Part shown: one piece after another, positions 22,037 to 63,011 of the stretch
Layout: each line of letters starts with the position of its first letter
Position numbering within the stretch: position 1 is the stretch's first letter
DNA from: Candidatus Micrarchaeota archaeon
GTDB taxonomy: Archaea; Micrarchaeota; Micrarchaeia; Norongarragalinales; UBA8480
Reading direction: 5' to 3'
DNA: 64,000 bases
Assembly (NCBI GenBank): GCA_043805855.1
Contig: JAZDHP010000005.1
Location: 1,132 to 65,131 of the forward strand
Position numbers and translations under genes: made by a program
Notes under the pieces: model-generated
Told to the model about the DNA's origin: nothing
What the model saw: the letters and a program-made list of their open reading frames with translations, nothing else
Databases searched by the model: none

Positions 22037-23524
22037 TTATTTAAACTTGAAAGTCATTGTGCTTTGCAAGGCGTTTGATTCATCTTCGTTTACTTTAAAA
22101 CTAGGATCGCCGTCGACAATTTTTACATTTAATTGCAAACTAGCACCTAAATAAGGACTATAACCTTGGCCATCTAGATTGAGAAACGCGTCGCTTTGGT
22201 CGTAAATTACTTTTTTAATCGCGTCTTCACCAGTGCAAGTTACTGCAGTTCCAACGTGCGTACATCGCCCAACTGGAATATTAGCTTGCATAAATTCAAC
22301 GAAAATTAAATCAGGCATTTTGCCAACCGCAGGTTTAACAACCTGTTCGAAAAACCTTTCCACAAGTTTTTCCCGCGCGCCTTCGCGAGTTGCGTCGGTT
22401 ATTGATCCGCTTGACTGTGTGAATCCAATGTCATTTGGTAACGCGTTGGACGCACAAACTGCGCCATGGCACACGCCATCGAGTATTCCTTCTCGATCCA
22501 TATCATTTACTCCAATTTGCGGACCGTATGCTAAAAGTGAATAGAACTTAAACGCTGCATCTTCGTATTTCATTAACGGAAAAGCAATTGGAAGGTAAAA
22601 ATCTGCAGAGTCAGACAACGCGCCGGTGCGTAGATAATTTCCCGCGTCGTCTTTCACTTGCAAGCGCGGTAAACTTGCATAAACTTGGGGATTATTTGGC
22701 GTAACTTTGACAAAGAAAATTCCAGAATCACAACCCGGGATAATATTATCACCTTCGCATATATCGCCCGGATTTAATGTATCACGCTTGCAGCACTGTA
22801 AATTCCCGCGGCTAAATGCAGCGCAGTCAATTGTAACTCCTTGCATTAAATTTTTACAATTTGTAATATAAGTCTGGTAGTCAAAATCAGCACCGTTTCG
22901 CGGGTCAAAAAACTCTTGGAATTTAACAGCATTGCTTGGTGAGAGCGTCATACCTTCAAATTCAAATTTTTGGTTTATATTGCTCAAGAAATTTTGCAAG
23001 CCATACTTGTGGTTATTCATACAAGATGGTTCAGTTGCACGGCAGTCTGCTCGATTTCCACAATTACGATCACATTCAGTATCGCCAAGCGAATCTCCAG
23101 TGCTTGAACAAACTACGCTGTACAAACTATCTCTAATTCTAGTGCAACGCGTAAAACGCTCGGTTTTCAACGCCTCTTCCTTTTCACTTAGCAAATAACT
23201 AGGGCTGTTTGTAACTTCAATTCCGAAAATATCCCAACCTACACTTGTTAACGCTTGTTCAGTAACTGTTTTCAAATCTTCTCTAAATAAAGAACCAGCA
23301 TCGCTGCGGTAAAGTTCAATAATTGCAGAAATTCTATTCTGGTAAGCAGACTGCGCTATTTGCGAAACGGCGTTACTCTCCGCTTTGCTAATGCTAACAA
23401 CAAACACAATCGCAGTTACAAAAATAATCGTGCCAATGAGTGGCGCAGCGATGAAAGCTTTCTTCATGGAAAAAACAACACAAGCGTAATATAAAAAGTA
23501 ACTTCGTAAAACAATTAATGGCAA
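22037..23524 (-). CDS. Cys-rich secreted/anchored protein, unknown function
   Basis: 495 aa. N-terminal TM/signal MKKAFIAAPLIGTIIFVTAIVFVVSISKA, with many Cys in the mature part. Lies immediately upstream of, and co-directional with, the giant gene. Confidence 0.65.
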   Translation of the reverse strand: MPLIVLRSYFLYYACVVFSMKKAFIAAPLIGTIIFVTAIVFVVSISKAESNAVSQIAQSAYQNRISAIIELYRSDAGSLFREDLKTVTEQALTSVGWDIFGIEVTNSPSYLLSEKEEALKTERFTRCTRIRDSLYSVVCSSTGDSLGDTECDRNCGNRADCRATEPSCMNNHKYGLQNFLSNINQKFEFEGMTLSPSNAVKFQEFFDPRNGADFDYQTYITNCKNLMQGVTIDCAAFSRGNLQCCKRDTLNPGDICEGDNIIPGCDSGIFFVKVTPNNPQVYASLPRLQVKDDAGNYLRTGALSDSADFYLPIAFPLMKYEDAAFKFYSLLAYGPQIGVNDMDREGILDGVCHGAVCASNALPNDIGFTQSSGSITDATREGAREKLVERFFEQVVKPAVGKMPDLIFVEFMQANIPVGRCTHVGTAVTCTGEDAIKKVIYDQSDAFLNLDGQGYSPYLGASLQLNVKIVDGDPSFKVNEDESNALQSTMTFKFK

Positions 23525-24228
23525 AAGTTGTTTTGGTTTGGAACGAGCACCCGACTGAAGTTGTTGCGGGTTTCCATGCGAGGAAAGTTGCCGAAATTCT
23601 GAAAAATAAATACGGACACGACGTTGTAATTGAAAAAATTCCAGTTGCCGAGACTAACTATGGCATAATTAGAAATGGAAAGGGAAACAAAGCAAATCAA
23701 TTGCTTGCGCTTAGAGATTCTATAGATTTTTTTCCAAAAGATCCAAGTGGCACAAAGTTTATGTTTAATTTCCACGCTGCACCCGCAGAAAGAATAGGAA
23801 AAAGCACACAAATGCCAGCTAGACTTTTCAAGGTGAGTCATAAAAGATGGCAAGATAATCTTGAAAGATTTGCAACTGAAATTACAATAATTAAAGGAAA
23901 AGGCCGCCAATATGCAATTGAAATGCCTGGATATTTCACTCGCATCCCGGGAAACGCTTATAGAAAAATGCTAGAACAAAAACGAGAATTTGAAACTAAA
24001 GAAAGATCAAAAATTGATAGAAAAATCAGCGCTGGAACATACACCGCTAGAGACATACTTAAGCTAATGGAATTTGCAACTGCAACGCAAAACACTTACA
24101 CTATACAAAGAACCGCACTTCATACTAAAAGACAAAAGAAATTTTTGTCAAGCGACGTTTCCAAAAAAATCGCAGCAGCGATTCACGAGAGAATCAACGC
24201 CAGTAATACCAAACCGCGTAGAACGTAA
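23518..24228 (+). CDS. Paralog family A member 1 (MAKVVLVWNEHPTEVVAGFHARKVA... / ...KIAAAIHERI). Putative metal-hydrolase-like N-terminal domain.
   Basis: 236 aa. One of four paralogs, with 28486, 52914 and 53627. Conserved HxxE (NEHPTE), FNFH, IE(M/L)PG and a C-terminal S.KIAAAIH. A TATA-like gtaatataaaaag lies ~30 nt upstream. Confidence 0.7.
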   Translation: MAKVVLVWNEHPTEVVAGFHARKVAEILKNKYGHDVVIEKIPVAETNYGIIRNGKGNKANQLLALRDSIDFFPKDPSGTKFMFNFHAAPAERIGKSTQMPARLFKVSHKRWQDNLERFATEITIIKGKGRQYAIEMPGYFTRIPGNAYRKMLEQKREFETKERSKIDRKISAGTYTARDILKLMEFATATQNTYTIQRTALHTKRQKKFLSSDVSKKIAAAIHERINASNTKPRRT

Positions 24229-24867: not shown

Positions 24868-27747
24868 ATGGTTGACTTTACAAGTATAGAAAACAAATGG
24901 CAAAGCAAGTGGTACACTGAAAAGATATTTGAACCAAAAACTGAAAAAAATAAAGAGAAATTCCTTTTTACCGTGCCATACCCGTATGTTTCTGGCGCGT
25001 TGCACGTTGGCCACGGGCGAACCTACGTCAACGGAGATATCGCTGCGCGGTTCAAGCGCATGCTTGGTTACAACGTTATGTGGCCAATTGCGTTTCACAT
25101 AACCGGTACTCCAGTGCTCGCGGTTAGCTCAAAAATTGCAGCTGGCGACGAAGCTACGATTAAACTTTACAACGAATACGTTTCCATCTACGAAGAGGAC
25201 AAGAGCAAAGTTCCCGCGATTGTAAAAAGTTTCACTGAACCATGGAAATTGGTGAATTACTTTTCTAGCAAAATGATTCAGGATTTCAAGTCAATTGGTT
25301 TTTCACTAGATTTGTCGCGTCAATTTACAACTGGCGACAAGGAGTACAACGCGTTTGTCACGTGGCAGTTTCACAAGTACAAAGACGCTGGCTATTTGAA
25401 ACAAGCTAGCTACCCAATTCTATATTGCGTTAATTGCAAAAACGCAGTTGGGGAGGACGACATTCAAGACGCTGACACTGAACCAGTTGAAGTGCAGAAG
25501 TTCACCGCACCGAAATTTAAATTAAAAGGAGAAAAGGCGTTTCTCGTTACCGCCACTTTAAGGCCAGACACAATTTATGGCGTTACTAATCTTTTTGTTA
25601 AACCCGGCGTTACTTACGTTCGCGGCAAAGTGGAAATAAACGGAAACCCCGAAGAGTGGATATTATCACCGCAAGCTGCAGAAAAATTAGCGTTTCAGCA
25701 AATTAAATTTACAAAAATTGCAGAGATAAATGGAGATTCTTTAATTGGTAAAGAAGTTGAAACACCAACTGGTTCTATTGTACCAATTGTACCTGGAGAA
25801 TTTATAGAAGAAGAAACGGGAACTGGAATCGTTCACTCTGAACCTTCAGATGCTCCGTTTGACTTAGTTGCAATTGAAGAGTTGAAACGCGATGAAAAAA
25901 CACTTGCGCAATACCCCGGCTTGAAGGAAAAAGTAAACGCGATAAAATTCAAACAAGTAATTTCATGTTCAGGGTATTCAGAATGCCCCGCGTTGGATTT
26001 AGTGAAAAAGTACAACGTAAAAACTACAAAACAAGCAGATGTGCTTAACAAAATTACTAAACAACTTTACAAAGATGAGTTTTACGGCGGCAAAGTTGTA
26101 AACAGCGGCGAGTTCAATGGATTGCCAGTTGAACAAGCAAAGGAAAAGATGGCAGCTTGGCTTGAAAAAACCGAAAAAGCTCATCACATTTACGAAACTT
26201 CTCGGTTAGCAAAGTGCCGCTGCGGTGGAAAAGTTGTAACCGCTGTTATGAACGACCAGTGGTTTCTTGATTTCAATGCAAAGGGCTGGAAGGAAAAATC
26301 CCACGCTTGCCTAGCGCAGATGAAAATCTACCCGGAAAATTACCGAAAACAATTTGAAGATACATTCGCGTGGCTTGACAAACGTCCATGCGCGCGGCGA
26401 CGCGGGCTAGGAACGCAATTACCGTTTGCAAACGAGTGGATAATTGAATCTCTCTCTGACTCGACAATTTACCCAGCGCTTTACACTGTTATAAAAGAAA
26501 TTCGAGTGAAAAAATTAAAACCAGAACAACTTACGGTTGAATTTTTCGACTACGTTTTCCTCGGAAAAGGAAAACCTGAAGACGTCGCGAAGAAAATAAA
26601 GTGCAAAGCGAAAGATCTTGAAGATATACGCGCGGAGTTCGTTTACTGGTACCCGTGCGACCAGCGGCACACGGCAATTGCACACATTACAAACCATTTA
26701 TCGTTTTACGTTTTTGCCCACGCTGCGATTTTTGACAAAAAATTCTGGCCAAAAGCAATCACAGTAAACGAACTTCTCATCAGCGAAGGTACAAAGATGA
26801 GCAAGAGTAAAGGCAACGTCATAACGCTCGACGCTATTCGTAAAAATTACTCTGCTGACCTTTACCGCTTGTACTCAGTTGCAACTGCTGATTTTGCAAG
26901 CGTGCTTGACTTTCGCAAGGCGGATATTGAAAACTCGCGGAAAAGCTTAACGAGGCTTTACGGCGTGCTGGAAAACTTAATTGAACTTTCAAAGAAGAAA
27001 ACAAGCGCAAAAAGTGGAAAGAAAAAAGAATCAAATTTAACTGCGTGGATTTTAAGCAAATTCGAAAGCCGACTTGAGAAAAGCACAGCTGCAATTGAAG
27101 GGCTTGAATTGCGTTTATATGCACAATCCGCAATTTATGGCATTTTAAACGACTGGGAATATTTCGCGAAGCGCGCAAGCGAAGAAGAAAAAATAACCAC
27201 AGCAAAGCACATTGTCAAAAAATGGATTTTACTGCTAACGCCTTTGATTCCCCACTCGTGCGAGGAGTTGAACGAACAGCTTGGCGAAAAAACCTACGCT
27301 TCCCTATCACAATGGCCTAACGTTGAAAAGAAATTGATAAACCCTAACGTTGAACAGCGCGAGGAGTACGTAAAAAACATTTTTGAAGACGTTACAAAAA
27401 TTAAAGATGTAATCCAGCGCAAGAACAACAAACTGAAATTAACAAAGTGTACGTTAATCGTTGCAAGCGACGCGAAATGGGCTGAACTCTTCGCCGCGTT
27501 GAAGAAAGATTCGCTTGAAAAGGTGAAAACAACAAGCGAAGCAATGCAGAAACACATGGAAAAGCACTTTTACTCACTGCAAGAACAGCACGTTAAGCAA
27601 ATTGACGAAATGGAAGTTATTAACCAAGCTAAAACATTTCTAGAAAAGGAACTCACACTGACAATTGATGTTGAAAGCGAAGAGAAAAGCTCGCATGAAA
27701 AAGCAATTCGCGCAGTGCCGTTGAAACCAAGCATTGTGCTGGAATAA
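24868..27747 (+). CDS. leuS: Leucyl-tRNA synthetase (archaeal/eukaryal type)
   Basis: 959 aa. Class I HIGH motif (PYPYVSGALHVGHGRTY), KMSKS motif (KMSKSKGNV), CP1 editing-domain-sized insertion. GGAG-type RBS 8 nt upstream. Confidence 0.93.
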   Translation: MVDFTSIENKWQSKWYTEKIFEPKTEKNKEKFLFTVPYPYVSGALHVGHGRTYVNGDIAARFKRMLGYNVMWPIAFHITGTPVLAVSSKIAAGDEATIKLYNEYVSIYEEDKSKVPAIVKSFTEPWKLVNYFSSKMIQDFKSIGFSLDLSRQFTTGDKEYNAFVTWQFHKYKDAGYLKQASYPILYCVNCKNAVGEDDIQDADTEPVEVQKFTAPKFKLKGEKAFLVTATLRPDTIYGVTNLFVKPGVTYVRGKVEINGNPEEWILSPQAAEKLAFQQIKFTKIAEINGDSLIGKEVETPTGSIVPIVPGEFIEEETGTGIVHSEPSDAPFDLVAIEELKRDEKTLAQYPGLKEKVNAIKFKQVISCSGYSECPALDLVKKYNVKTTKQADVLNKITKQLYKDEFYGGKVVNSGEFNGLPVEQAKEKMAAWLEKTEKAHHIYETSRLAKCRCGGKVVTAVMNDQWFLDFNAKGWKEKSHACLAQMKIYPENYRKQFEDTFAWLDKRPCARRRGLGTQLPFANEWIIESLSDSTIYPALYTVIKEIRVKKLKPEQLTVEFFDYVFLGKGKPEDVAKKIKCKAKDLEDIRAEFVYWYPCDQRHTAIAHITNHLSFYVFAHAAIFDKKFWPKAITVNELLISEGTKMSKSKGNVITLDAIRKNYSADLYRLYSVATADFASVLDFRKADIENSRKSLTRLYGVLENLIELSKKKTSAKSGKKKESNLTAWILSKFESRLEKSTAAIEGLELRLYAQSAIYGILNDWEYFAKRASEEEKITTAKHIVKKWILLLTPLIPHSCEELNEQLGEKTYASLSQWPNVEKKLINPNVEQREEYVKNIFEDVTKIKDVIQRKNNKLKLTKCTLIVASDAKWAELFAALKKDSLEKVKTTSEAMQKHMEKHFYSLQEQHVKQIDEMEVINQAKTFLEKELTLTIDVESEEKSSHEKAIRAVPLKPSIVLE

Positions 27748-27908: not shown

Positions 27909-28145
27909 ATGGTAATGTTAAGTGTTGAGGTGTACGGCGTCACTGAACAGGTTCTAAACGACTTGGTACTTGCAGGTTACGCTAAAACCAAAACAGAAGC
28001 AGTGAGACAGGCAATTATTCATCTAGGCCAGGAACTTAACTTATTACGCAGCAAAAAACGAACCGAAGATGAGGAATGGCAAGAATTTGCTGCAAGAGAA
28101 GCCTTAGGGGACTGGGACGATGCAAGAAAATTATTCAAGTTTTAA
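27909..28145 (+). CDS. Putative antitoxin of the MazF-type module
   Basis: 78 aa, acidic C-terminus (EDEEWQEFAAREALGDWDD). Overlaps the toxin gene start by 26 nt. Confidence 0.45.
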   Translation: MVMLSVEVYGVTEQVLNDLVLAGYAKTKTEAVRQAIIHLGQELNLLRSKKRTEDEEWQEFAAREALGDWDDARKLFKF

Positions 28146-28476
28146 ACAAGGCGATATTGTTATCATGAAAATGCAATTCTCTACTTTTGAAGAGGCAAAG
28201 ATAAGGCCCGCTCTCGTCATCAGCTCAAATACATATAACCAACACGGCGAAGACATAATACTATTGAAAATAACCTCGCATGGAAAAGATAGACCATATA
28301 GCGTGCCAATCGCACAAAACGATTTGGTCTCAGGTACACTTAACTTAGATAGCTTTGTAAAAGCCGATTTTCCAATTACTGTAAAAAAGGATAAATTATT
28401 CAAAACAATTGGCAAAGTAAGCCCAAAAATCGTGCAACAAACAAAAGAAAAGCTAAAACAAATATTAGAACTGTGA
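28120..28476 (+). CDS. MazF/PemK-family endoribonuclease toxin
   Basis: 118 aa. KQGDIVIMKMQFSTFEEAKIRPALVISS...EDIILLKITSH...SVPI...SFVKADFPITV matches the PemK/MazF signature (GDIV...K.RPALVIS...ITS...V.I). Confidence 0.7.
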   Translation: MQENYSSFKQGDIVIMKMQFSTFEEAKIRPALVISSNTYNQHGEDIILLKITSHGKDRPYSVPIAQNDLVSGTLNLDSFVKADFPITVKKDKLFKTIGKVSPKIVQQTKEKLKQILEL

Positions 28477-28485
28477 ACAAAAAAC

Positions 28486-29193
28486 ATGGCAAAGGTTGTT
28501 TTGGTGTGGAATGAACATCCAACTGAAGTTATTGCAGGACACCACTGCCGGCAAGTTGCAAAACTCTTACGTGAAATGGGACACGAAGTTATTGTAAAGA
28601 AGATAGCCGCTCGCGACACAATATACGGAACAGTACAACACGATAATTACGCAGCTGCTGGGAAAAAATTACTAAACACAAAGCCAACCGCAGAGATTAC
28701 TGAAGAGTTTGCAAAAAATTTTAATGCAATTACTTTTAATTTTCACGGCTATGCTGCAACTGCTTTACGGCGGTATCGAGCTAAAAAACCAGAAAGATTA
28801 AAGATAAAAGAAAAGTTAGGCAAAAGCTCCTTGATAATACGTGGCGATATATGCTTTTATAGAATTTCACCGCATGCGTTTGCAATTGAAATTCCAGGCA
28901 TTATGGAAAAATTGCCAAGAGAAAAAAGAGCGGTTCAAAAAGAACGATTAAACCAAGCGCTATACGGGGCAATCAAAGCAAAGGAAAGGGCAAACGTAGG
29001 CAAATCATTATTAAAACGAATCGGGGATCATTCAATGCAAATGGATCAAATACTAAACACGACTGACGCTAAGTATCACCTAAACCGCATGCCAATGAAT
29101 TTGCCAGCACAGCAGAATTTTAAATCTCCAGTTATTTCTGAAAAAATCGCAGCTGCTATACACGAGCGGCTTACTTCGCAACGCGTAAAGTGA
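28486..29193 (+). CDS. Paralog family A member 2
   Basis: 235 aa. MAKVVLVWNEHPTEVIAGHHCRQVA...FNFHGYA...FAIEIPG...SEKIAAAIHERL. Confidence 0.7.
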   Translation: MAKVVLVWNEHPTEVIAGHHCRQVAKLLREMGHEVIVKKIAARDTIYGTVQHDNYAAAGKKLLNTKPTAEITEEFAKNFNAITFNFHGYAATALRRYRAKKPERLKIKEKLGKSSLIIRGDICFYRISPHAFAIEIPGIMEKLPREKRAVQKERLNQALYGAIKAKERANVGKSLLKRIGDHSMQMDQILNTTDAKYHLNRMPMNLPAQQNFKSPVISEKIAAAIHERLTSQRVK

Positions 29194-47800: not shown

Positions 47801-48958
47801 GGCGGAACGTGCATCTTGAATCAATTACAGTATTTAACCGGCAGGCAAGTGAACAGTGACTTGACAAGCGTGCTTGGAAAAGTTACTGGAATTTACACTA
47901 CTAGCGGTTCAGTTCAAATTTCAGATGGAGCAATTAGGTTCAACCCGAGCGAAGCAATTAATGACCAAATGGAAATAAGAAGCCCAGGCGCAGGCGTAAT
48001 ACAAACCGCAAGTTCAAGCGAAGAGTTGGCTTACAAACAAGCAGCGATGCTTGCAATTGACAACAACGGCGGCGTTACACTCAGCGGTTACATTACTTCT
48101 AAATCACCTGAACAAGTGCCAGCCGGCGAACTTATAACAATAATGACCGAACGCGGTCGCATAAACTATATGGGCGGCGGGAGAGTACAAATATTCTTAC
48201 ACACACTAGCACAGGGAGACGCTGGTTTGATAAATGGATTTACAACAATGCCAGTTCAATACAACCAATGCCCCGGCTACAACGCACCTGGAATAAAAAT
48301 ATCTAATTTACAGGGATACGCTGGCCCCGGCGACCAAGTTGCCGCACAGTTAAACGCAGCTTTACAACAAATTCAAGGCTGTAACGGAATGCAAGTGCTT
48401 GAAACAAAAGATAAGAAAATAATGTTCGGAACAAACGCAAACGGAGAACCAGTTTTGAGAATTATTGACAAAAACACAGGAGAAGTTACCGAAGCGCGTA
48501 TAAATGGTCCAATTCGCCGAGAGGGTAACGAAATTATAGTTCCAACTGACAAGGGAGAATTTAGGTTCAATATAGGAATGGGCGAAAACGGCCAGCCAAT
48601 GCTTTCACTAACAGGACCAAACGGGTTACAAGAAAATGGCCCATTGTTAAGAGCAAATGGACTTGGCGGCATGTTAGTTTTTGACCCGGCAACAGGACAA
48701 TGGCATGTGTTAAACGGCCAAGATTTGGCAATGAACGACAACTTTGCAAAGTACGGCACATCATACGGCCGCGATACAAAAGGAAACTTCGTCGGCTCAC
48801 CTGGAGCAGACTTCCTGTCACCTTCATCTAAAAGAGTTTCAACAAGCGGCAACTCACTCGCTTCGCTACCTTCATGGCCAGAGGAATCGCCAATTTTGCT
48901 AGTAGTTATTGTACTTACGTTGTTAGCCGTTGCGTTTGTACGCTGGAGAAAAGTTTAA
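44894..48958 (+). CDS. Large secreted protein (1354 aa) with N-terminal signal peptide and C-terminal motif-TM-basic tail (sortase-type sorting-signal architecture)
   Basis: N-terminus MNLKGNLSAFFIIIFTLEIFSPLAFAYTP. C-terminus ...SLASLPSWPEESPILLVVIVLTLLAVAFVRWRKV-stop. Confidence 0.75.
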   Translation: MNLKGNLSAFFIIIFTLEIFSPLAFAYTPLPLGSPATTIPTTIGSRYNVPGQCEVNEMTPEQVQLFWIQTQNFRGDQINSKTDEALMTTKPSGTTINLNVNNFPADSGEKVHPFVDIARLLGLDEKKRKEAAQFLGKRETDRISNKEAHQLAKKYEKNEGEFGTLLDAFRGTASEESPAYESYKLKTNGGGEIPSTALQGKTPIDECIINNAHVQGKASYVVSTSKDVAIAADSSQTQSEKVNFLHSTNTLGSLDLQGASTLIIPKHYKELVTRLKKWLAADLLASIGQTTVFFGEKNALSKSQEKLKEIVERKRDFGLDQIAFSRIQDSPLKLEVYGLGSRLSVTKSELQQSVEKMQLNFIRMHAGNVEITDDVIARLNTDPQFATRYNSLQKIQNELESATSLKPTDPADDIYQKYKNDLHGVAGINDADQIEIQNAQERLRTNQDYVKTLNDLNGKTYKADLEKVKRKLAGRTGESWFRLAMGMAWLGPGRFVFELADGVDFVPISNKAFAENYVTIMADNTDLAGEFRRATNWVLSGTVTDMLSDATGEGIPTAAYRVGNLIIVNNPVEDQTVTGTSVTSLQNNGGKWNIGTEWKGKSDALVAEQLTTENEYARLPMEVKGQAWNLKIRARQEFSTFYDTMIYLAPLLSWRILGATDYAVTIFRVAVYDFYVTDFVNPAAFKKDEVCSDEEIDKYVNWYMGATLVNQGLGWAPILTPWFKGLSTVTKVSAALNSKTKIFTGPFIDKYVKSIGKVLDPVTLAQMYIAGEALDYASNCKDDQYTILAYQQLKKKSAATISDRLQSIGGSDFLSKLNVGQAVKGVGQQVDTATMSEYVNFRAVLENQVSSITADEIYFLHFKGDSIEWINNIKTNTAQPEMCQRECLDSKTKVCCRDATGTECTDKATGVKTQIAGKERSLMAKRFTNLALVLTPNKYISTSLGGCPGNILQIDSSKNIQLTSGTTCTGGTCILNQLQYLTGRQVNSDLTSVLGKVTGIYTTSGSVQISDGAIRFNPSEAINDQMEIRSPGAGVIQTASSSEELAYKQAAMLAIDNNGGVTLSGYITSKSPEQVPAGELITIMTERGRINYMGGGRVQIFLHTLAQGDAGLINGFTTMPVQYNQCPGYNAPGIKISNLQGYAGPGDQVAAQLNAALQQIQGCNGMQVLETKDKKIMFGTNANGEPVLRIIDKNTGEVTEARINGPIRREGNEIIVPTDKGEFRFNIGMGENGQPMLSLTGPNGLQENGPLLRANGLGGMLVFDPATGQWHVLNGQDLAMNDNFAKYGTSYGRDTKGNFVGSPGADFLSPSSKRVSTSGNSLASLPSWPEESPILLVVIVLTLLAVAFVRWRKV

Positions 48959-50969: not shown

Positions 50970-51509
50970 ATGCCAAAAATATTATCTGAGAAGACAACCC
51001 ACGTCGGTAAACTTTTCCACGTGAAGCAAGTTAAGCTGCGATTTCCTAGTGGCGAGTACCTCCATGAGTATACTGATTCCAACACGAGAAAAAGCGCCAT
51101 GATAGTTCCCGTTGATGACAATGGAAAAATAATTTTAATAGAAACTTATTGCACCGCGATGAAAAAGCGAGAGTTAATGTGTCCAGTTGGACTAATTGAA
51201 AAAAGCGAAACTGCGGCTCAAGCCGCGCGGCGCGAGTGTCAAGAAGAAATTGGCTTTCTACCGCGAACATTGCAACACATCGGCGCAGTTGAAACTTCTC
51301 CTAGTTACATTGTGCACACGAGCGAGTTGTTCATTGGAACACAATTAGTTCCTAGCAAGCTAGAGGGAGACGAGCCTGAAGAAATGAAAATCGTGCGCGT
51401 TTCGTGGAAGCAAATTGCACAGTTGATAAAGAAAAAGAAAATCCAATACGCAACAACAATAGCAGCGCTGCTAATGGCGGAAAAAATATTAAAGCGAAAT
51501 ACAAAATGA
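50970..51509 (+). CDS. NUDIX hydrolase
   Basis: 179 aa. Nudix box GLIEKSETAAQAARRECQEEIGF (Gx5Ex7REuxEExGu). Confidence 0.75.
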   Translation: MPKILSEKTTHVGKLFHVKQVKLRFPSGEYLHEYTDSNTRKSAMIVPVDDNGKIILIETYCTAMKKRELMCPVGLIEKSETAAQAARRECQEEIGFLPRTLQHIGAVETSPSYIVHTSELFIGTQLVPSKLEGDEPEEMKIVRVSWKQIAQLIKKKKIQYATTIAALLMAEKILKRNTK

Positions 51510-51971: not shown

Positions 51972-52892
51972 ATGGCATTTGTTCGGAGAAAGAAAAAGGG
52001 GAACACTTTCTTTTATGAATTAGTTGAAAATACGTGGGAAAAGGGAAAAACAAAACAAAAGGTAGTACAATATTTCCCTACACTGGAAGCGGCTAATCTT
52101 TATTGCGAGCAAAGGGGAATACACAAACTAGAAACAAAGCTACTAATTTCACCACACTTAGAAAAACAATTAAACGAAAATTTAGATATCCTAAACAAAG
52201 CGAGGCCGTTGCCAGAAAGTACCCTTAAGAACTTGAAGGACATTTTTGAAATCGAAATAACATATAACTCCAATGCAATCGAGGGAAATAGGTTAACGCT
52301 TCGAGAAACTTGGCTCGTTATTAGAAAGGGAATGACAATCGGCGGTAAAACTGTTGAAGAACACCTGGAAGCAAAAAATCACGCTGAAGCACTTGAATTT
52401 TTGTACGAATTAGTTGACAAGGGAAGAGAAATTAAAGAAAATGACGTTTTACAGTTGCATAAGCTAGTGCTTGACAAAATTAGTTCAGAGTACGCTGGAA
52501 AATACCGAGACAGGCAAGTTTTCATTTCAGGCGCAACGCATATTCCCCCTGCGGCTTCTGAAGTTCCTAAGCTAATGAAACAAGTTATTATTGAACTGAA
52601 CAATCGCGACAAAAAAACAAAGGCAGTTATTTCAGCATCTAAAGTACATTACTTAACAACTAAAATTCACCCGTTTATTGATGGCAACGGGAGAGTAGCG
52701 AGGCTGTTGCTAAACTTGCGCTTAATGCGCGCAGGGTTTCCGCCAGTTGTATTACACAAAACTGAGAGAAGGAGTTACTACTCTGCACTTGAAAAAGCCG
52801 ACGATGGCGACTTATACCCAATAACAACCTTAATAGCAAAGAACATAGAAAAATCACTAGAAACTTACCTAAGTGCACTGGAAAAAAAGTAA
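51972..52892 (+). CDS. Fic/Doc family protein (AMPylation-type Fido domain)
   Basis: 306 aa. Canonical Fic motif HPFIDGNGRVARLLLNL (HPFx[DE]GNGR). Confidence 0.8.
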   Translation: MAFVRRKKKGNTFFYELVENTWEKGKTKQKVVQYFPTLEAANLYCEQRGIHKLETKLLISPHLEKQLNENLDILNKARPLPESTLKNLKDIFEIEITYNSNAIEGNRLTLRETWLVIRKGMTIGGKTVEEHLEAKNHAEALEFLYELVDKGREIKENDVLQLHKLVLDKISSEYAGKYRDRQVFISGATHIPPAASEVPKLMKQVIIELNNRDKKTKAVISASKVHYLTTKIHPFIDGNGRVARLLLNLRLMRAGFPPVVLHKTERRSYYSALEKADDGDLYPITTLIAKNIEKSLETYLSALEKK

Positions 52893-52913
52893 AATAAAGT
52901 GAAAAAATAAAAA

Positions 52914-53621
52914 ATGGCAAAAGTTGTACTTGTTTGGAACGAGCACCCGACAGAAGTAGTTGCGGGTTTCCACGCGAGGAAAGTTGCTGAAATTCTGCGC
53001 GAAAAATATGGACACGAAGTTATACTAGAAAAGATTCCAGTAAGCGAAACGAATTATGGAATAATCCGAGACGAACCTAGTCCAAAAGTTGCAGCAGAGC
53101 GTCTAGCAAAACTTAAAGGCTCAAGTTTAATTGCAGAGGACTACGCTAGAAAATACGGCGCGCCTGCATTTAACTTTCATGCATCACCCACTATGGCTCA
53201 AGGACAATCTGGCAGAAAACCGGCGTGGCGGTTTAAAGTGGGCAAAACAGACCCAACTAAAAGAACCTGGACTCAACATGAAATTGACTTTTTACCTTGG
53301 AAACAAGGAACTGTAATCGAATTACCTGGAGAGTTATACGCCTCAGGCGCGGGCTCCCTTGGAAGAATGGAAGTAAAACGAACAAGAGTTGAAGATGAAG
53401 CGAAAAAACTTCAAGGAGATGCTAAGATAGTTGCAGAAATGGCAAGTCAAATTAACTACGTTAGTTTGTCAATGCCGTTGCATGAAGAAACGCAAAAGAA
53501 GTATTTATCGCCAATAATTTCCCGCAAAATAGCGGCGGCCATTCATAAACAAGTTACCGGGGAGAAATGGTTCCACATTGGGAGAAAATTGAAAAGAGTT
53601 ATAAACCGTAATCGAGTCTGA
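52914..53621 (+). CDS. Paralog family A member 3
   Basis: 235 aa. The first ~150 nt are about 95% identical to member 4, 5 nt downstream. The middle is unrelated. C-terminal KKYLSPIISRKIAAAIHKQV. Confidence 0.7.
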   Translation: MAKVVLVWNEHPTEVVAGFHARKVAEILREKYGHEVILEKIPVSETNYGIIRDEPSPKVAAERLAKLKGSSLIAEDYARKYGAPAFNFHASPTMAQGQSGRKPAWRFKVGKTDPTKRTWTQHEIDFLPWKQGTVIELPGELYASGAGSLGRMEVKRTRVEDEAKKLQGDAKIVAEMASQINYVSLSMPLHEETQKKYLSPIISRKIAAAIHKQVTGEKWFHIGRKLKRVINRNRV

Positions 53622-53626
53622 AAAAC

Positions 53627-54319
53627 ATGGCAAAAGTAGTACTTGTTTGGAACGAGCACCCGACAGAAGTAGTTGCGGGTTTCCACGCGAGGAAAGTTGC
53701 TGCGATTCTGCGCGAAAAATATGGACACGAAGTTGTATTAGAAAAAATCCCAGTAAAAGAAACTAACTATGGAATTGCTACAGCTTTAGATTCCGGAACA
53801 TCAGCACTAAATATAGCTGCTAAAATAGATAAATTAAAACCATCCATACAAAGGGCTCGAGAACTTGCAGAAAAGCACAGTGCAGTTGTATTCAATTTTC
53901 ACGCAGCTGAATCTGCTAGAATGGCAGACGCAGATAAGAAAGAACCAAAAGAATTTCGCGTTATGAATATTAAAGATAGCGAAGAACATTATCCCGCAGA
54001 AATCACAATACAAGCCAAAGATAGAGAACAAAAACACCACGTAATCGAATTACCAGGAATACAAATAAATTTGCCAACTAAAAAAAGAGAAAAGGCACTT
54101 GAACGAATTAGAAAAATTCTAGAAGCTGCAAAACACTTAAAAAGATCAGACCCCGTAGAGAAATACATTACACAAGTAAGGCTTAATGTCGAACTACACG
54201 AATACTATCACGCGCAAAGAATGGCAGTAACCGATTCAGCACAAAAAAAATACCTTTCGCCAGCAATTTCTGAAAAAATCGCAGCCGCAATCCACGAACG
54301 AATAACAAGACAGCGCTAG
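53627..54319 (+). CDS. Paralog family A member 4
   Basis: 230 aa. Tandem with member 3. C-terminal KKYLSPAISEKIAAAIHERI. Confidence 0.7.
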   Translation: MAKVVLVWNEHPTEVVAGFHARKVAAILREKYGHEVVLEKIPVKETNYGIATALDSGTSALNIAAKIDKLKPSIQRARELAEKHSAVVFNFHAAESARMADADKKEPKEFRVMNIKDSEEHYPAEITIQAKDREQKHHVIELPGIQINLPTKKREKALERIRKILEAAKHLKRSDPVEKYITQVRLNVELHEYYHAQRMAVTDSAQKKYLSPAISEKIAAAIHERITRQR

Positions 54320-54705: not shown

Positions 54706-55404
54706 TTAGGGAGTCTTACCCTCAGCCAGCAATGCACTTCTAGGAGATGCCACCGAACTGTCTTTGTCGCCTTTCTTAACAGCTTTCAACAATTCAAAAC
54801 GTAAAATCTTGTCATTATGACAAGAACCAACAAAATTATAGAATTTCAAAACTTCAGCACTTCCATGAATAATCAAGGCATACATCTTTACAGAAGTGCC
54901 TTTTTTCACGTAAGGGCCGCATACGCGGCCACACTTGATTCCAAAATTCAATATTATTTTTCTTATTTCTTCAAGAACACCTTTATTGGCCTGAGCGAGG
55001 TAAATTCGAATGTTTGCTTCAGGAACTATTCCCATTTTTTCAAAAGAGTTTATACTTCCTTCAGCGTCGAAAAAACCTTTAACATAAGCTGCTTTTACTT
55101 CTTGCGAACCACAATAAATCCAACTTGGAGTTAACCAAGTAGCTTGATCGCCCGTAAATTCAGCTAATTTTGAAAGTTTTTGAAAAACTTCCTTTGATGT
55201 TATACTCAAGCACCAGACACCATGTCTCTTGTCAAGATAAAAACTTGGTTTTTTGTTAAAATTATTTATTATAATTCTAGAAAGAACCTCAAGCCATTCT
55301 TTATTTTTTTGATAAAGCCGAATGCGATAAATTCCTTCTTTAGGAACGATGGAAAAACTTCCATCTCGCAGTGTCCCAATCAAATAAGCTACTTCTTTAT
55401 TCAT
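54706..55404 (-). CDS. LAGLIDADG homing endonuclease (intron-encoded, double-motif)
   Basis: 232 aa. YLIGTLRDGS and KGFFDAEGSI motifs. C-terminus reads into the downstream exon. Confidence 0.75.
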   Translation of the reverse strand: MNKEVAYLIGTLRDGSFSIVPKEGIYRIRLYQKNKEWLEVLSRIIINNFNKKPSFYLDKRHGVWCLSITSKEVFQKLSKLAEFTGDQATWLTPSWIYCGSQEVKAAYVKGFFDAEGSINSFEKMGIVPEANIRIYLAQANKGVLEEIRKIILNFGIKCGRVCGPYVKKGTSVKMYALIIHGSAEVLKFYNFVGSCHNDKILRFELLKAVKKGDKDSSVASPRSALLAEGKTP

Positions 55405-55651: not shown

Positions 55652-56600
55652 AAACCGCAGAAGAAAAATAAATTCACTTCCGGATTCTGAAACGAACAAA
55701 CGGAGCCTACGAGTCGTATGGTTCAAATGTTCTTGCGTTTCTCCCTTTTTTACAAAGTTAACACTGATCTGAAAAAGCCACTAACAATTAAATTAATTCC
55801 TAGTTGCAATTCTATCTAGTGCAACTTTGCCAAGGAAAAACGAAGACTTTGAATAAACTCGTTGGTTCTATTGCCGAATGTTCATGAAAAATGAACTCTC
55901 GGGCGCGACGAGCCTGTATAGAGTTTTCGATTTCAATTCATCACTAGCAAATTAAAATAATTTGTTTAAAGCATTTAGCTTTTCTGGATGCTCGATGCCA
56001 ATACAATCGCGAAAACGTGCAATGTTCTGCACGCCGCGTATGTTTAGCTGCCCAATGTCTCTGGAATTAGTTATCTTGTTAGAAACTATTCCAAAACTTT
56101 CAAGCATCTGCGCTATAAGCGCAAGTTTCAACGTGTCTTTTTGGTATATTTCAATTCTATAAGACGTTCCAGGTTTTCTTTTTGGAACGCTCCCCTCTGC
56201 GTCGAAAAATCCCCTTATGAAATGTGCTTTCACTTGAAGATCTTCATCCAACAGAGAAGGTAGATTTTGCATTGCGTTTTTTATTTCAAAAAACGCTTGC
56301 TTTGAATATATCCTTACTCGATAAAGTTCGCCTTTTGCCTCGCGTTTTCTAACTTTTGTATATTTGCCATAGACTTTTTCAAATCTAGGTAAAATAGAAT
56401 TAGCGAGCCAAGCGGCTACTTTCTGCTCATACTCAATACAATATTCCCCTCTTGCCTTGCATTGATACAAACAACCATCACCAAAAGCGCCTAGTAAATA
56501 GGCGAAATCTTGATTCATATTGATTGCAAGGAAATGTTGAATTTAAAGCTTGAGCTACACGTCGTTGCCAGTGATTTTGCGAATTGAAAACGAAATTACC
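55652..56600 (-). mobile_element. 23S intron 2 carrying a LAGLIDADG ORF. Inserted after GCTACCCTGGGGGTAA (the I-CreI/I-DmoI-type region of domain V).
   Basis: The exon sequence GGGGAUAACAGG is broken after GGGGGTAA at ~56600 and homology resumes near 55650 (..ATATCGACGGCGCGGTTTGGTACATCGCTATCGGCTC). Boundaries +/-25 nt. Confidence 0.55.
55952..56518 (-). CDS. LAGLIDADG homing endonuclease (intron-encoded)
   Basis: 188 aa. YLLGAFGDGC and RGFFDAEGSV motifs. Confidence 0.75.
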   Translation of the reverse strand: MNQDFAYLLGAFGDGCLYQCKARGEYCIEYEQKVAAWLANSILPRFEKVYGKYTKVRKREAKGELYRVRIYSKQAFFEIKNAMQNLPSLLDEDLQVKAHFIRGFFDAEGSVPKRKPGTSYRIEIYQKDTLKLALIAQMLESFGIVSNKITNSRDIGQLNIRGVQNIARFRDCIGIEHPEKLNALNKLF

Positions 56601-56811
56601 CCCAGGGTAGCTTGTCTGTCAGAAAGGACTCCCATTAACGGAGATGCCTTTGTTCGTTAAGCCCCACTTTCGTGTCTGCGTTCCATTTTGTTAAGAACAC
56701 AGTCAGGCCAGCATTTGTCTTTAACCCTCTACAGCGGATTTCTAACCCGCTTGAGCTGACCATTAGGCGCCTTTGTTATTTTTTCGAAGGCGTACCGCTT
56801 ACTGGCTTTCC

Positions 56812-57590
56812 ATAGCAAGCAAAAGTCCATAAAAAATATTTTACTTAACGAAGCAAATGCTTCGTTAAGGCCTTACACCTTTTAAGGTGTAAGTTAACCG
56901 GCACGGAGGTGTCGGTTAAAGTTTAAAAGCAACTAACTTCATCTCTTTGGTCGATGGATGAAAATTTAGCTACGCTTATTGGCATGTTATTGTCAGATGG
57001 ATCTGTATATTTCGACAAATCCAAGGGAACCTATTGTATTCAGTTCACTAACAAAAACAGCCAAATGCTTGAGTATTTCAAATTTTTAGTTCTCCAATGT
57101 TTTGGACGGCGCAATTTTCACATTAATAAATGTAAAAACGCGGTTTCTGTTCGCTTCTTCTCTAAAGGAATTGCTGAATTTCTTTTTACATTTTCTCCAT
57201 CTTTCAGAACCTTGCGGTTTAAAAATGGAACGTATCCAGAAACTAGAATTCCAAAAGAAGTGTTTGCTGAACAAAAATTCGCCGTTGCATTTCTACGCGC
57301 TTATGCGTCTTGCGATGGATGTATTTATTCCAACGAAAGTCACAACGCAGTTATAGAAATTGCATGCGTTCATCCTAAATTGAAACAGCAACTTTTTGAG
57401 TTACTTGAAACTCTCGGAATCGAAAGTTTAGTAACTGCAAAAGGAATTCGAATTTATCGTAGAAGCGAAGTTGAAAAATTCGCAACTACAATTCGTTTCC
57501 TTCCAGAAAGTACCGTTGTTCAATCTAGTTCTCCTAACTTAGGAAAACTAAAGAATGAAATTTTGGACTCTTGTTTATCTTGCCACAAGA
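56812..57590 (-). mobile_element. 23S intron 3. Its homing endonuclease ORF is on the plus strand, antisense to the rRNA.
   Basis: Exon homology (GGTGGATAGTTTGACTGGG, ~E. coli 2235-2255) stops near 57590 and resumes near 56810 (GAAAGCCAGTAAGCGGTACGCC). The rRNA-3' side of the intron carries the 60-nt element shared with the 16S ORF-less intron. Confidence 0.5.
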
Positions 57591-57619
57591 AAACACCCAG
57601 TCAAACTATCCACCTGTAG
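56954..57619 (+). CDS. LAGLIDADG homing endonuclease encoded antisense to the 23S rRNA
   Basis: 221 aa. LIGMLLSDGSVYF and LRAYASCDGCIY motifs. Last ~10 codons overlap the exon. Confidence 0.65.
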   Translation: MDENLATLIGMLLSDGSVYFDKSKGTYCIQFTNKNSQMLEYFKFLVLQCFGRRNFHINKCKNAVSVRFFSKGIAEFLFTFSPSFRTLRFKNGTYPETRIPKEVFAEQKFAVAFLRAYASCDGCIYSNESHNAVIEIACVHPKLKQQLFELLETLGIESLVTAKGIRIYRRSEVEKFATTIRFLPESTVVQSSSPNLGKLKNEILDSCLSCHKKTPSQTIHL

Positions 57620-57908
57620 CTGTTCCACTTCTTACATGAAGTGGTGAGATTCGCAGTCAAAGCAGAGCAGTGTTACACTTTCGCCTATTCGCACCCCGGA
57701 AGGTGCGACATAGCGGCTCCTGCTTACGCTGTGCAGTTTCAACCGTGAATCAACCACAGGCTATAGTTAAGCTCCATGGGGTCTTCGTTTCCCCCTAGAA
57801 GTTCCTGGCATGTTCACCAGGTAGTAAGTTCACCAGGTCCAAAGCAGGGACAGTGGGAGGCTCGTTACGCCATTCATGCGAGCCGCCAATTAAGCGGCGA
57901 GGTATTAC

Positions 57909-58628
57909 GCTCATGTCTGTTACACGCGTTTAAAAAATACGCGGGGTCAACCATTTCTGTTGACCTCTGCATATCGCTATGCAGATCGGACTATATCTTC
58001 ACCATTTCTGGCGTTTAGCGTATAGTCTCTGAGGATTCTAAATAAAACGGAATCGTCTTTCTGTTCATTGTGGAAATTATTCCAGCTATTTTGTCAAGTC
58101 CTTCCTTTGTTAAGTGTTGCTTTGCTTCCATGATTGAAAGAATTTCTGCAAATTTTTCCAAGTTCTTTTGTTTGGAAGTTTGCAATTTGTACCGTTTGAA
58201 GAATTCTACTATTAATTTCAAATTCTTTAAACCGCGTACGCGAAATTCTTTTCGATCACCGTGGTTTACAGTTACTTCTCCAAAACCAAAATATTCTTTG
58301 ATTCGGTAAAGCACTTGTTCATCACGTTGATGCTGCACAACTCTAAATTCTGGAAGAACCGTCCAGCCGGCGGACATTTTCTCTAGCTTGTTTATAGCTA
58401 CATGAAAACATCCTTCTCCGTCAACGAACCCAACGATCCAGTTTGGATTTAGTCTTTCCTGCTGATTGTCTGCACTCATAACATTGTCATTACAGCTCAC
58501 GTGTTTTTGATTTAAATTTAAATCGCAACACGTCATTGCCGGTAATAGTTTGAGATACCCCAGAGTTTCCAGCATATAGCTAAATTTTGTTAAGGCAAAT
58601 GTAATCTTACCTTAAGAGACTCAGAGTT
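57909..58628 (-). mobile_element. 23S intron 4 carrying a LAGLIDADG ORF. Inserted after ..CTTAAGGTA (E. coli ~1917 region, a known archaeal LSU intron site).
   Basis: CCUAAGGUA|GCGAAAUUCC is interrupted. The exon resumes at GCGTAATACCTCGCCGCTTAATTGGCGGCTCGCATGAATGGCGTAACGA (~57905). Confidence 0.55.
58015..58575 (-). CDS. LAGLIDADG homing endonuclease (intron-encoded)
   Basis: 186 aa. WIVGFVDGEGCFHV motif. Confidence 0.7.
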   Translation of the reverse strand: MLETLGYLKLLPAMTCCDLNLNQKHVSCNDNVMSADNQQERLNPNWIVGFVDGEGCFHVAINKLEKMSAGWTVLPEFRVVQHQRDEQVLYRIKEYFGFGEVTVNHGDRKEFRVRGLKNLKLIVEFFKRYKLQTSKQKNLEKFAEILSIMEAKQHLTKEGLDKIAGIISTMNRKTIPFYLESSETIR

Positions 58629-59227
58629 TAGACTGTCAGAGTTCCGTAGAACGCTGAATTAGTCCCGCTCTTTAGCAGTCCTTCATTGGGTTGAAACCCA
58701 ACTTCAGATACTACCAGTGAGCAGGCGTCACCCTCCGTACAAAACGTTTCCATCTTGCGGAGAGCTGTGTTTTTGATAAACAGTCGACCTCCCCTAGTTA
58801 TTGCAACCTACAGGTCCATACTTGATGTAATCTCGTACAAAAGTGTAGGCACCCCTTTTCCCGAAGTTACGGGGCTGACTTGCCGAGTTCCCTTGCTTTG
58901 GTTCTCCTGCCACGTCTTGGCTTTCTCTGCCAGGGGCACCTGTACTGGTTCTAGGTACGATCTCACGACTCGCTTCTTGCACTGTTTTCAGGGGCTCATG
59001 GATTCGGTTTGTATTTCCTAGCTTGAACAAGTGCTCTTCACAACGAAACTTCCTTGTTCTATTCTAGTTAAACGCTCAAGGAAATGAGCGCCAAACTTAT
59101 CCACAAGCGTCTAATGCAAGCTTGTGTTACCACGAGCTGTCGCGAGGCACACGAATATTAACGTGTTTCCCTTTCCGCTTTAATCACCGTTACGTGTAGC
59201 GTTAGGATCGGCTTACTCTTGGTCGAC

Positions 59228-59330
59228 TCGCTGAACCTTTTCTTTCTCAAAGAAATAAAACGTTCACGAAAAGAAAGATTTTAATTTTCTTTTCCGTAGA
59301 CGCTTTTCTTTTCCCAAAAGAAAAGGGTCT
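59228..59330. repeat. Cluster of three short A/T hairpins (CTTTTCTTT-N-AAAGAAAAG type) forming an expansion segment inside 23S
   Basis: ccttttctttctcaaagaaataaaacg / cgaaaagaaagattttaattttcttttccg / cgcttttcttttcccaaaagaaaaggg. Same hairpin family as in the ITS and tRNA introns. Confidence 0.6.
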
Positions 59331-61225: not shown

Positions 61226-61929
61226 ATTTATTGTAAATAGAGTTTTTTGAAATTGTTTTTGGAAAGAAATGGCGTTTGAAAATTTAGGGACTAGATCTAG
61301 TCTGTATTCTATCGATTGCACAAAAAATGTTTGGAGGTGATCTAACCGCAGGTTCCCCTACGGTTACCTTGTTACGACTTAACCCTCCTCACGAACTAAT
61401 AGCTTGAATCAATCCGTTGGACTGAGCCTCACTAAAAGCTCGCTTGGGTGGCTTGACGGGCGGTGTGTGCAAGGAGCGGGGACATATTCACCGCGCGATG
61501 ATGACACGCGATTACTAGTCATTCCAGCTTCACGAGGATGAGTTTCAACCCTCGATCCGAACTTAGGTAAAGTTTTGGGGATTGCCTTCGCCTTTCGGCG
61601 TCGGAACTCATTGTCTTTACCATTGTATGCCACGTGTGGCCCAGGAAATTCAGGCCATACTGACCTAGCGTCGCCTTCTCCTTCCTCCCACTTAACGTAG
61701 GCAGTCTTCACAGAGTGCCCCTTACATTACTGTAAAGGTAGCAACTGTAAACGAAGATCTCGCTCGTTGCAGGACTTAACCTGACACCTCACGGCACGAG
61801 CTGACGCTGGCCATGCAACACTTCTCAGCTTGTCGGCCAAGATCTTTAGTCTGGGCTTCATTCTGCTGTCTTTCCTGGTGAGTTTCCCGGCGTTGAGTCC
61901 AATTGAACCGCAGCTTATGGAGCTAAGAG

Positions 61930-62242: not shown

Positions 62243-62278
<36 letters not shown>

Positions 62279-62384: not shown

Positions 62385-63011
62385 TTTCCGGCACTAGCTA
62401 GCTATATAAAAAGTTAAACCTATTCACGTTCAACGCGCCTGTGATGTCTATTCTAAAGCCACCATCAGAGCATCGACTGAGCGAACAGGCAATTTTATCT
62501 GCTTTTAACACTTTCACTATTTTCGTTATCGCTTTCTCGTTGTATATCTCAAAAGCGATACGTGGTTTGTTTCTCCACAGATAGCTATAAGCTTCTGCAT
62601 CGAATAAACCTTTTGTAAAAGCGCGGAAAAACTTTTTATTACTAAAATTTGGAATCACAAAAGTTTTACTTTTGTTTCTACCTTGGCAATGTAATAATTT
62701 TCTCAATTCAGCTTCAATTTTTACTGAATAAATTGAAATTAAATACATTTCGTGACCGTCGGAATATTTTCTCTTTTTTACTATTGGTTTTTTGCCAAAA
62801 ACTCTTTGCATTAGTTCAGCAATTTCAACTGACCTTTGTAAATATTTTGTACCAATAGAAATTCCGCGGCTTTGAAACCACCCATCTCCGGCAAATAATC
62901 CAAGTAAATAACAAAAATCCTTTGAATACATAGATTAGTTATTTGTATTGAATTATTAAGCTCATCGAGACAGGTCGTTGCCGGTGATTCCGGCTAATTA
63001 GCTAACTAGTG
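62385..63011 (-). mobile_element. 16S intron A (~627 nt) with LAGLIDADG ORF, inserted between GGATTAGATACCCGGGTA and GTCCTAGC (E. coli ~800 region)
   Basis: Exon homology breaks at 63011 and resumes at 62384 (GTCCTAGCAGTAAATTATGC). Confidence 0.6.
62398..62931 (-). CDS. LAGLIDADG homing endonuclease (16S intron-encoded)
   Basis: 177 aa. YLLGLFAGDGW and KGLFDAEAYS motifs. Confidence 0.75.
   Translation of the reverse strand: MYSKDFCYLLGLFAGDGWFQSRGISIGTKYLQRSVEIAELMQRVFGKKPIVKKRKYSDGHEMYLISIYSVKIEAELRKLLHCQGRNKSKTFVIPNFSNKKFFRAFTKGLFDAEAYSYLWRNKPRIAFEIYNEKAITKIVKVLKADKIACSLSRCSDGGFRIDITGALNVNRFNFLYS

Follow-up and report, generated by a model that had tools for sequence, protein, structure and literature searches.

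Four related genes in a Micrarchaeota contig

We describe a family of small proteins encoded by four genes, c1 to c4, in a 64,000-nucleotide stretch of a metagenome-assembled genome (MAG) of a Candidatus Micrarchaeota archaeon (assembly GCA_043805855.1, contig JAZDHP010000005.1, positions 1,132 to 65,131 of the forward strand), called the window below and numbered from its first letter. The genes c3 and c4 form a tandem pair. The copies and their motif sites are as follows.

23518..24228, + strand: c1, V1722_00280, 236 aa; intact open reading frame (ORF), identical to P0029
c1 motif sites, + strand: H11 23548-23550; E14 23557-23559; FNFH His (aa 86) 23773-23775; IEMPG Glu (aa 135) 23920-23922; tail KIAAAIH 24166-24186
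28486..29193, + strand: c2, V1722_00305, 235 aa; the copy diverging most of the four
c2 motif sites, + strand: H11 28516-28518; E14 28525-28527; His (aa 87) 28744-28746; Glu (aa 135) 28888-28890
52914..53621, + strand: c3, V1722_00430, 235 aa; leads the tandem pair
c3 motif sites, + strand: H11 52944-52946; E14 52953-52955; His (aa 89) 53178-53180; Glu (aa 136) 53319-53321
53562-53618, + strand: C-terminal extension of c3, 20 aa, basic, of low confidence in the AlphaFold model
53627..54319, + strand: c4, V1722_00435, 230 aa; second of the tandem pair, starting 5 nt past the c3 stop
c4 motif sites, + strand: H11 53657-53659; E14 53666-53668; H92 53900-53902; E141 54047-54049

A previous examination of the letters alone (the sequence-only reading) had proposed four genes with a common N-terminal start and a conserved C-terminal tail. 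The ORF calls (four intact plus-strand frames of 230 to 236 aa) bear this out: all four copies begin with MAKVVLVWNEHPTEV and carry KIAAAIH near their C termini. The ORFs of the window are identical to proteins of the MAG with V1722_ tags. The window holds no other copies by tblastn, but the same MAG encodes at least three further members on other contigs, namely, V1722_00545, V1722_04665, and the 131-aa fragment V1722_03110, which brings its count to at least seven. An ortholog of c2 (P0046, 85% identical) comes from another sample.

A small family restricted to DPANN archaea

A word-indexed search of 5.8 billion proteins returned 51 homologues, none of them with a Pfam domain and all named ones from Micrarchaeota. 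An exhaustive hidden Markov model (HMM) search of 1.84 billion cluster representatives gave 174 matches at E ≤ 1e-3 and 56 at E ≤ 1e-30, while 185,579 species-representative genomes contained just 8 family loci, all in Micrarchaeota, with three copies in one MAG. The distant members that bear names belong to Candidatus Diapherotrites and Micrarchaeota.

Scanned against Pfam and NCBIfam, the four window proteins gave no match even at E ≤ 10, and this includes Amidase_3 as well as the two families to which the sequence-only reading had pointed, AstE_AspA and Peptidase_M14. Among 43 distant members scanned against Pfam at E ≤ 0.1, there was no match to Amidase_3 or AstE_AspA, and one protein matched SpoIIP at E 0.026. 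PADLOC and PHROG models did not match the four window proteins, searches of PDB sequences with family profiles (A1 and A4) yielded chance-level matches only, and a renewed homologue search from the distant-tier profile led to no further family, whether new or annotated. A literature search for Micrarchaeota or DPANN amidases also found nothing. Given the distribution of the hits over Micrarchaeota and Diapherotrites and the absence of matching models, this is a small, undescribed family found only in DPANN archaea.

Conserved residues and predicted structure

In 46 Micrarchaeota sequences, the residues W8, E10, H11, P12, E14, H20, R22, L28, and H34 (c4 numbering) are invariant, as are F91, H92, E141, P143, A219, and I222. 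The HxxE pair (H11 and E14), the histidine of FNFH, and the glutamate of IExPG, singled out as conserved by the sequence-only reading, are all among them. The 43 distant members (18 to 28% identity) all retain E14 and H92, and E141 is nearly invariant among them; their N-terminal motif widens to HP[TN]E, giving the family signature HP[TN]E ... FNFH ... IExPG ... ISEKIAAAIHERI. Many distant members (P0082-P0163) also have strongly basic tails, with 10 to 16 Lys/Arg among the last 30 residues; these tails and the c3 extension could bind nucleic acids.

AlphaFold2, run on c4 with the 46-sequence alignment, produced a model with a predicted local distance difference test (pLDDT) score of 96.9 and a predicted template modeling (pTM) score of 0.91. 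It comprises β1 (residues 3-9), α1 (15-30), β2 (35-41), three helices (47-84), β3 (87-95), β4 (112-116), β5 (126-130), β6 (137-144), and an all-helical C-terminal part (151-228). Modeled separately, c3 (pLDDT 92.7) shows the same order of strands and helices, plus its low-confidence basic extension. The modeled core is a six-stranded α/β sandwich of the Amidase_3/M14-like kind. The N terminus is strand β1 itself (MAKVVLVW), without a signal peptide or an extra domain.

We consider it probable that this unnamed family encodes compact cytoplasmic metal-dependent, most likely zinc-dependent, amidohydrolases. His11 and Glu14, right after β1 (HP[TN]E), and His92, at the end of β3 (FNFH), would jointly hold the metal, and the general base would be Glu141 in β6 (IExPG). 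The suggestion of an unrecognized small hydrolase family is the best-supported reading. Membership and distribution of the family, its fold with the nearest solved neighbors, the conservation map, the age of the paralogs, the 5′ homogenization, and the enrichment of neighboring synthetase genes come from the data themselves; metal binding, hydrolysis, and the role of the variable helices are what we infer.

Relationship to known amidohydrolases

A Foldseek search of the model against PDB and BFVD gave no significant match. Among the solved structures compared, the nearest are those of Amidase_3 (PF01520; CwlV 1jwq, AmiC 4bin, PlyPSA 1xov, and CD27L 3qay), with which the family shares the six-stranded α/β sandwich. 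AmiC has four strictly conserved catalytic residues, His196, Glu211, His265, and Glu373 (PMC9966196), whose positions we verified in its sequence. In the c4 model, H11, E14, H92, and E141 would sit on secondary-structure elements equivalent to those carrying AmiC H196, E211, H265, and E373, respectively.

Compared by hhalign with an Amidase_3 profile of six sequences (Escherichia coli AmiC and five PDB chains), the family gave three weak, collinear local alignments. These pair E14-α1-β2 with AmiC Glu211-α1-β2 (P 0.01-0.03), AVVFNFH92A with ADLFVSIH265A (P 0.19), and the conserved tail with the AmiC C-terminal helix (P 0.31); H11 and E141 fell outside them. Neither the family profile against the single AmiC sequence nor a forced global hhalign run gave an informative alignment.

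The family departs from Amidase_3 in several respects. Its metal-binding His and Glu would be 3 residues apart (HPTE), versus about 15 in Amidase_3 (HGGxDxGAxxxxxxE), its model has no helix between β4 and β5, and about 55 variable helical residues are inserted ahead of the last helix. Amidase_3 enzymes act on peptidoglycan and are exported or phage encoded, usually with wall-binding domains, whereas the family proteins have no signal peptide, no wall-binding domain, and no PHROG match. The hosts, all of them DPANN archaea, are not known to make murein, so that peptidoglycan cannot be the substrate of the family.

The position of the HxxE motif recalls instead the AstE/AspA family (PF04952; succinylglutamate desuccinylase and aspartoacylase) and the M14 carboxypeptidases, in which it also lies right after the first strand, near the N terminus. 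HP[TN]E corresponds to HGNE in AstE/AspA, and in both cases a downstream His and then a Glu follow; this pattern is by itself not specific to AstE/AspA. hhalign pairs VVLVWNEHPTE with LVISAGIHGNE, nonsignificantly (P 0.12-0.6; four-sequence AstE profile). As a control comparison of Amidase_3 with AstE was equally nonsignificant (P 0.21), such small profiles lack the power to decide superfamily relations at this distance. The chemistry of AstE/AspA, the deacylation of small amides, would be shared by the family. Its proteins do not have the two-domain build of AstE/AspA (about 300 to 350 aa, with a C-terminal β domain), nor the eight-stranded fold of the carboxypeptidases. Hence, of the proposed kinship with AstE/AspA or M14, the pattern of zinc-ligand-like H/E/H plus Glu persists (HP[TN]E, FNFH, and IExPG), but specific membership is not supported, as no HMM matched and both fold and architecture differ.

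The same fold class includes further small metal amidohydrolases: N-formylglutamate amidohydrolase (2odf), the poly-γ-glutamate hydrolase PghP (3a9l), and creatininase (3lub and 1j2t). Their structural scores are below those for Amidase_3 and they show no sequence similarity to the family, whose motif spacings and C-terminal helical module are its own. Its traits are mixed: the HxxE spacing is M14-like, the six-stranded core and the C-terminal helix resemble those of Amidase_3, and the helical insertion is specific to the family. We read it as a minimal and very derived representative of the Amidase_3/M14-like zinc-amidohydrolase fold class and as a new and divergent family whose fold class and chemistry are of a known kind.

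Under the main competing explanation, the protein is a nonhydrolytic, flavodoxin-like or lumazine-synthase-like domain whose conserved His and Glu serve to hold a cofactor, a phosphate ligand, or a partner protein. It would then look like a zinc amidase only because both have the common three-layer α/β sandwich. We regard this as unlikely, albeit less so than the other alternatives considered below.

Aminoacyl-tRNA synthetase genes beside family members

The family genes have no fixed operon partner. In the window, c1 lies 640 nt upstream of a leucyl-tRNA synthetase (LeuRS) gene, and c2 lies downstream of it, beyond an inserted toxin-antitoxin pair.

24868..27747, + strand: LeuRS, 959 aa; Pfam tRNA-synt_1, Anticodon_1, and LeuRS editing domain

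In a census around nonredundant family genes, ORFs within 1.2 kb (n = 133) were compared with ORFs of the same contigs at distances above 2.5 kb (n = 98). Aminoacyl-tRNA synthetases (aaRS) account for 13 of the 133 near ORFs (9 methionyl [MetRS], 3 alanyl [AlaRS], and the window LeuRS) and for 0 of the 98 listed far ORFs (Fisher p = 7.7e-4). MetRS precedes the family gene with a gap of 2 to 7 nt at five loci (L006, L010, L021, L028, and L030), and AlaRS is divergent from it at three (L001, L020, and L024).

These data raise the possibility of an enzyme tied to the aaRS, which would be a more specific version of the amidohydrolase proposal and not an alternative fold: an N-acyl-amino-acid deacylase feeding the adjacent synthetase, or a hydrolase with aminoacyl- or peptidyl-tRNA as its substrate, with different paralogs for different amino acids. 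Besides the adjacency to MetRS, AlaRS, and LeuRS and the census enrichment, other neighbors (NFACT_N, HIT, and DRG GTPase) and the basic tails of many distant-tier members, which could bind RNA, are in line with it. Several observations weigh on the other side. The MetRS-linked loci have a common upstream block (arginase and Orn/Arg decarboxylase) and represent about one ancestral event, so that the enrichment comes down to roughly three independent events and is suggestive only (roughly p = 0.01, post hoc). No aaRS lies near about half of the loci, c3 and c4 among them. A neighbor-joining tree of the gene bodies, which are too saturated, did not resolve context-defined, aaRS-specific clades, and translation genes make up a large share of small DPANN genomes. 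For the shared block and the tree, we take the aaRS link as a suggestive lead on function and not as a result.

On this lead, one may tentatively picture DPANN-specific zinc deacylases coupled to aaRS, the variable helical lid of each paralog serving a different amino acid or tRNA, although we hold this to be rather improbable. In this picture, the enzymes would either hydrolyze aberrant aminoacyl- or peptidyl-tRNAs or scavenge N-acyl amino acids or peptides and free the amino acids in them.

Toxin-type genes and other neighbors

Toxin-type genes are frequent beside the family genes, in the window and elsewhere.

27909..28145, + strand: antitoxin-like ORF, 78 aa; overlaps the PemK/MazF gene
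28120..28476, + strand: PemK/MazF toxin gene, 9 nt upstream of c2
51972..52892, + strand: Fic/DOC-domain gene (Pfam Fic, E 1.4e-19), 21 nt upstream of c3

From its position, the Fic/DOC gene is probably cotranscribed with c3 and c4. Such a pairing with Fic-family genes was not seen in other genomes, and Fic is absent from the 25 families of the near-neighbor census. The 133 near ORFs include 8 PIN, 4 MazE, 3 PemK, and 2 HepT genes. In L002 (4430-4991) and L023 (3410-3987), a small ORF plus PemK separates MetRS from the family gene, and a HepT-MNT pair occupies the AlaRS/family junction in L020 (3309-3937) and L024 (3306-3937). Conversely, MetRS directly abuts the family gene in L006, L010, and L021, and the AlaRS junction of L001 has no pair. 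Because orthologous junctions exist both with and without them, the toxin-antitoxin modules are secondary insertions at the aaRS/family junction.

One might still view the family as a third component or accessory of toxin-antitoxin or defense modules, for instance, an enzyme reversing the toxin modification. This would account for the MazF, Fic, PIN, and HepT neighbors, including the short distances between toxin genes and c2 or c3. We reject it as highly improbable, given the module-free junctions just described. In addition, the toxin family differs from locus to locus (PemK, PIN, HepT, or Fic), whereas a type II toxin-antitoxin or defense component would be paired with a single toxin family and match a defense model; PADLOC gave no match. 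These genomes are also dense in such modules, with three pairs in 10 kb of L002.

The aaRS/family junction itself looks like an insertion hot spot for toxin-antitoxin pairs (window 27909-28476, L002, L023, L020, and L024). Several other genes recur near family members. A PF06821 serine hydrolase gene (about 188 aa) is convergent just past the family gene in L011 (1484-2047), L023 (4660-5223), and L028 (4694-5257), each on the minus strand; the Pfam census counts four such neighbors, and L023 and L028 also have MetRS upstream. Three metagenome loci share a ribonucleotide reductase with a TSCPD domain (1039 to 1056 aa) upstream of the family gene (L029, 3-3787; L037, 3-3876; L034, 3-1623, partial), along with two small minus-strand ORFs, also upstream. 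NUDIX hydrolase genes occur a few kilobases upstream of family genes at four loci (window, 50970-51509; L009, 3406-3960; L001, 883-1404; L002, 2511-2819), that of L009 directly adjoining the family gene (13-nt gap).

Constant ends, variable middle, and the age of the paralogs

Measured as majority-residue frequency along the chain, conservation in the family is a mosaic.

Residues 1-50, β1-α1-β2: 0.82
Residues 51-85, α2-α4: 0.34
Residues 86-93, β3 with FNFH: 0.74
Residues 94-124, loop and β4: 0.35
Residues 125-144, β5-β6: 0.41
Residues 145-200, α5-α6: 0.25
Residues 201-226, tail helices: 0.74

The constant core consists of the first 50 residues, which are nearly invariant (H20, R22, and H34 among them), and of the conserved C-terminal helix, ISEKIAAAIHERI; α2-α4 and the approximately 55-residue insertion (α5-α6, between the Glu strand and the last helix) diverge freely. 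These variable helices probably make substrate recognition differ from one paralog to the next.

The sequence-only reading had described the middles as hypervariable and as unrelated within the tandem pair. The latter is contradicted by end-to-end alignments of all copy pairs (31 to 43% protein identity, tblastn), by the narrow range of inter-motif lengths (44 to 60 aa from H92 to E141 and 48 to 74 aa from E141 to Q206), and by the common element order of the c3 and c4 AlphaFold models. Moreover, 125 between-genome pairs show the same pattern, with mean identities of 71% in the N-terminal part and 24% in the middle. The mosaic therefore belongs to the protein family as such, in which the catalytic and packing core stays constant and the lids are free, and does not come from a locus-specific cassette mechanism.

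Without their first 50 residues, the window copies share 23 to 34% identity with their own paralogs. In the same comparison, c2 is 82% identical to P0046, c4 39 to 40% to P0004 and P0006, and c3 38% to P0005; each copy is thus at least as near to proteins of other genomes as to its own paralogs, from which we conclude that the paralogs are ancient.

A variable-cassette or diversity-generating family, in which unrelated middles are swapped between constant ends, was the other option of the sequence-only reading and would fit the mosaic and the homogenized 5′ ends of the tandem pair, but it is rejected as scarcely credible, since the scaffold is fixed: the alignable middles keep FNFH, E125, and IExPG, the pattern is shared between genomes, the bodies show synonymous saturation and have nearer relatives in other genomes, and the ORF lists show no repeats or retroelement adjoining the genes.

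Probable localized gene conversion in the tandem pair

The 5′ ends of c3 and c4 form a homogenized tract.

52909..53062, + strand: homogenized tract of c3; partner 53622..53775
53622..53775, + strand: homogenized tract of c4; partner 52909..53062

The tract runs from about -5 (before the ATG) to about +148, with identity at chance level on both sides, and 138 of its 149 coding nucleotides are identical (92.6%, somewhat below the earlier estimate of about 95%). The near-identity announced for all four copies holds for the tandem pair and less so for c1 (83% identical to c3/c4) and c2 (about 70 to 80%, over about 74 to 120 nt only). At identical residues, c3 and c4 use the same codon in 38 of 45 cases (0.84) within the first 50 codons, versus 12-14 of 31-32 (0.45) in the gene body. 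Over the first 90 nt, they share 87 positions with an identical run of 64 nt, and two contigs of MAG nzgw34 (L009 and L010) likewise share 87, with a 50-nt run. The 125 between-genome pairs reach at most 79 positions and a 31-nt run, so that the identity of c3/c4 exceeds all of them.

A nucleotide-level functional element in the first 150 nt is rejected, as the 18 between-genome pairs with at least 28 of 30 identical residues share on average only 74 of 90 nt. A recent tandem duplication is rejected as well, the bodies being synonymously saturated and nearer to other genomes. With no nucleotide-level constraint that would explain 87 of 90 positions, gene conversion confined to the sole segment similar enough to recombine is the best explanation for c3/c4, and the alignment of the 5′ ends supports it for this pair. 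Two causes would then combine: throughout the family, strong purifying selection acts on the module, and now and then paralogs of one genome undergo gene conversion in this module only. In a second tandem pair (L013, 6001-7320, from another Micrarchaeia MAG), the 5′ ends are not homogenized (61 of 90 nt identical).

Other features of the window

The remaining features are an archaeosortase-like ORF, the rRNA region, and two large ORFs.

24194-24688, - strand: archaeosortase-like ORF (Exosortase_EpsH, subthreshold: E 1.6e-4, 21.6 bits versus a cutoff of 25.7)
54706-55404 and 55952-56518, - strand: LAGLIDADG_3 ORFs between c4 and the large-subunit (LSU) rRNA gene, outside it or at its 3′ edge
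56452-60704, - strand: LSU rRNA, archaeal; 4253 nt versus 2987 in the Rfam model
61332-63768, - strand: small-subunit (SSU) rRNA, archaeal; 2437 nt versus 1478 in the Rfam model
56954..57619 (+ strand), 58015..58575 (- strand), and 62398..62931 (- strand): LAGLIDADG ORFs inside the rRNA genes
14660-21940, - strand: giant ORF, 2426 aa; only CarboxypepD_reg and Big_1 domains, near the N terminus
44894-48958, + strand: large ORF, 1354 aa, without a Pfam match

The 3′ end of the archaeosortase-like ORF overlaps that of c1 by 35 nt. The neighbor reported earlier is therefore present, although its identity stays below threshold. Similarly, the tandem pair is near the rRNA operon but does not abut it, as 2.1 kb and two LAGLIDADG ORFs separate the end of c4 from the LSU 3′ end; a c4 homologue in another MAG (L019) likewise adjoins a LAGLIDADG ORF. 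Since the rRNA genes exceed the model lengths and contain LAGLIDADG ORFs, they suggest several homing-endonuclease introns. ARAGORN found no tRNA genes in the whole window. The 2426-aa and 1354-aa products may be large surface proteins.

Significance

Although DPANN genomes are tiny, at least seven copies of this protein, which has no name in any database, are retained in the present Micrarchaeota MAG; such retention points to an important function specific to the lineage. With its signature, confident models, and some 170 cluster representatives, the family can already be defined. It would be suited to a Pfam entry of its own and offers a tractable target for biochemistry. It is probably the smallest version of an Amidase_3/M14-type zinc site, in a cytoplasmic archaeal setting. 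The 150-nt conversion tract in otherwise saturated paralogs offers a small example of how identity maintained by selection allows localized gene conversion.

Current understanding is not overturned by these observations. Their value lies in the annotation of dark matter and in the placement of family genes directly downstream of MetRS and beside AlaRS or LeuRS, a concrete, testable lead on function, and it would be greater if the aaRS link proves functional. Such a coupling, if true, would give genome-reduced symbiotic archaea a means, unknown until now, of supplying or proofreading the substrates of translation.
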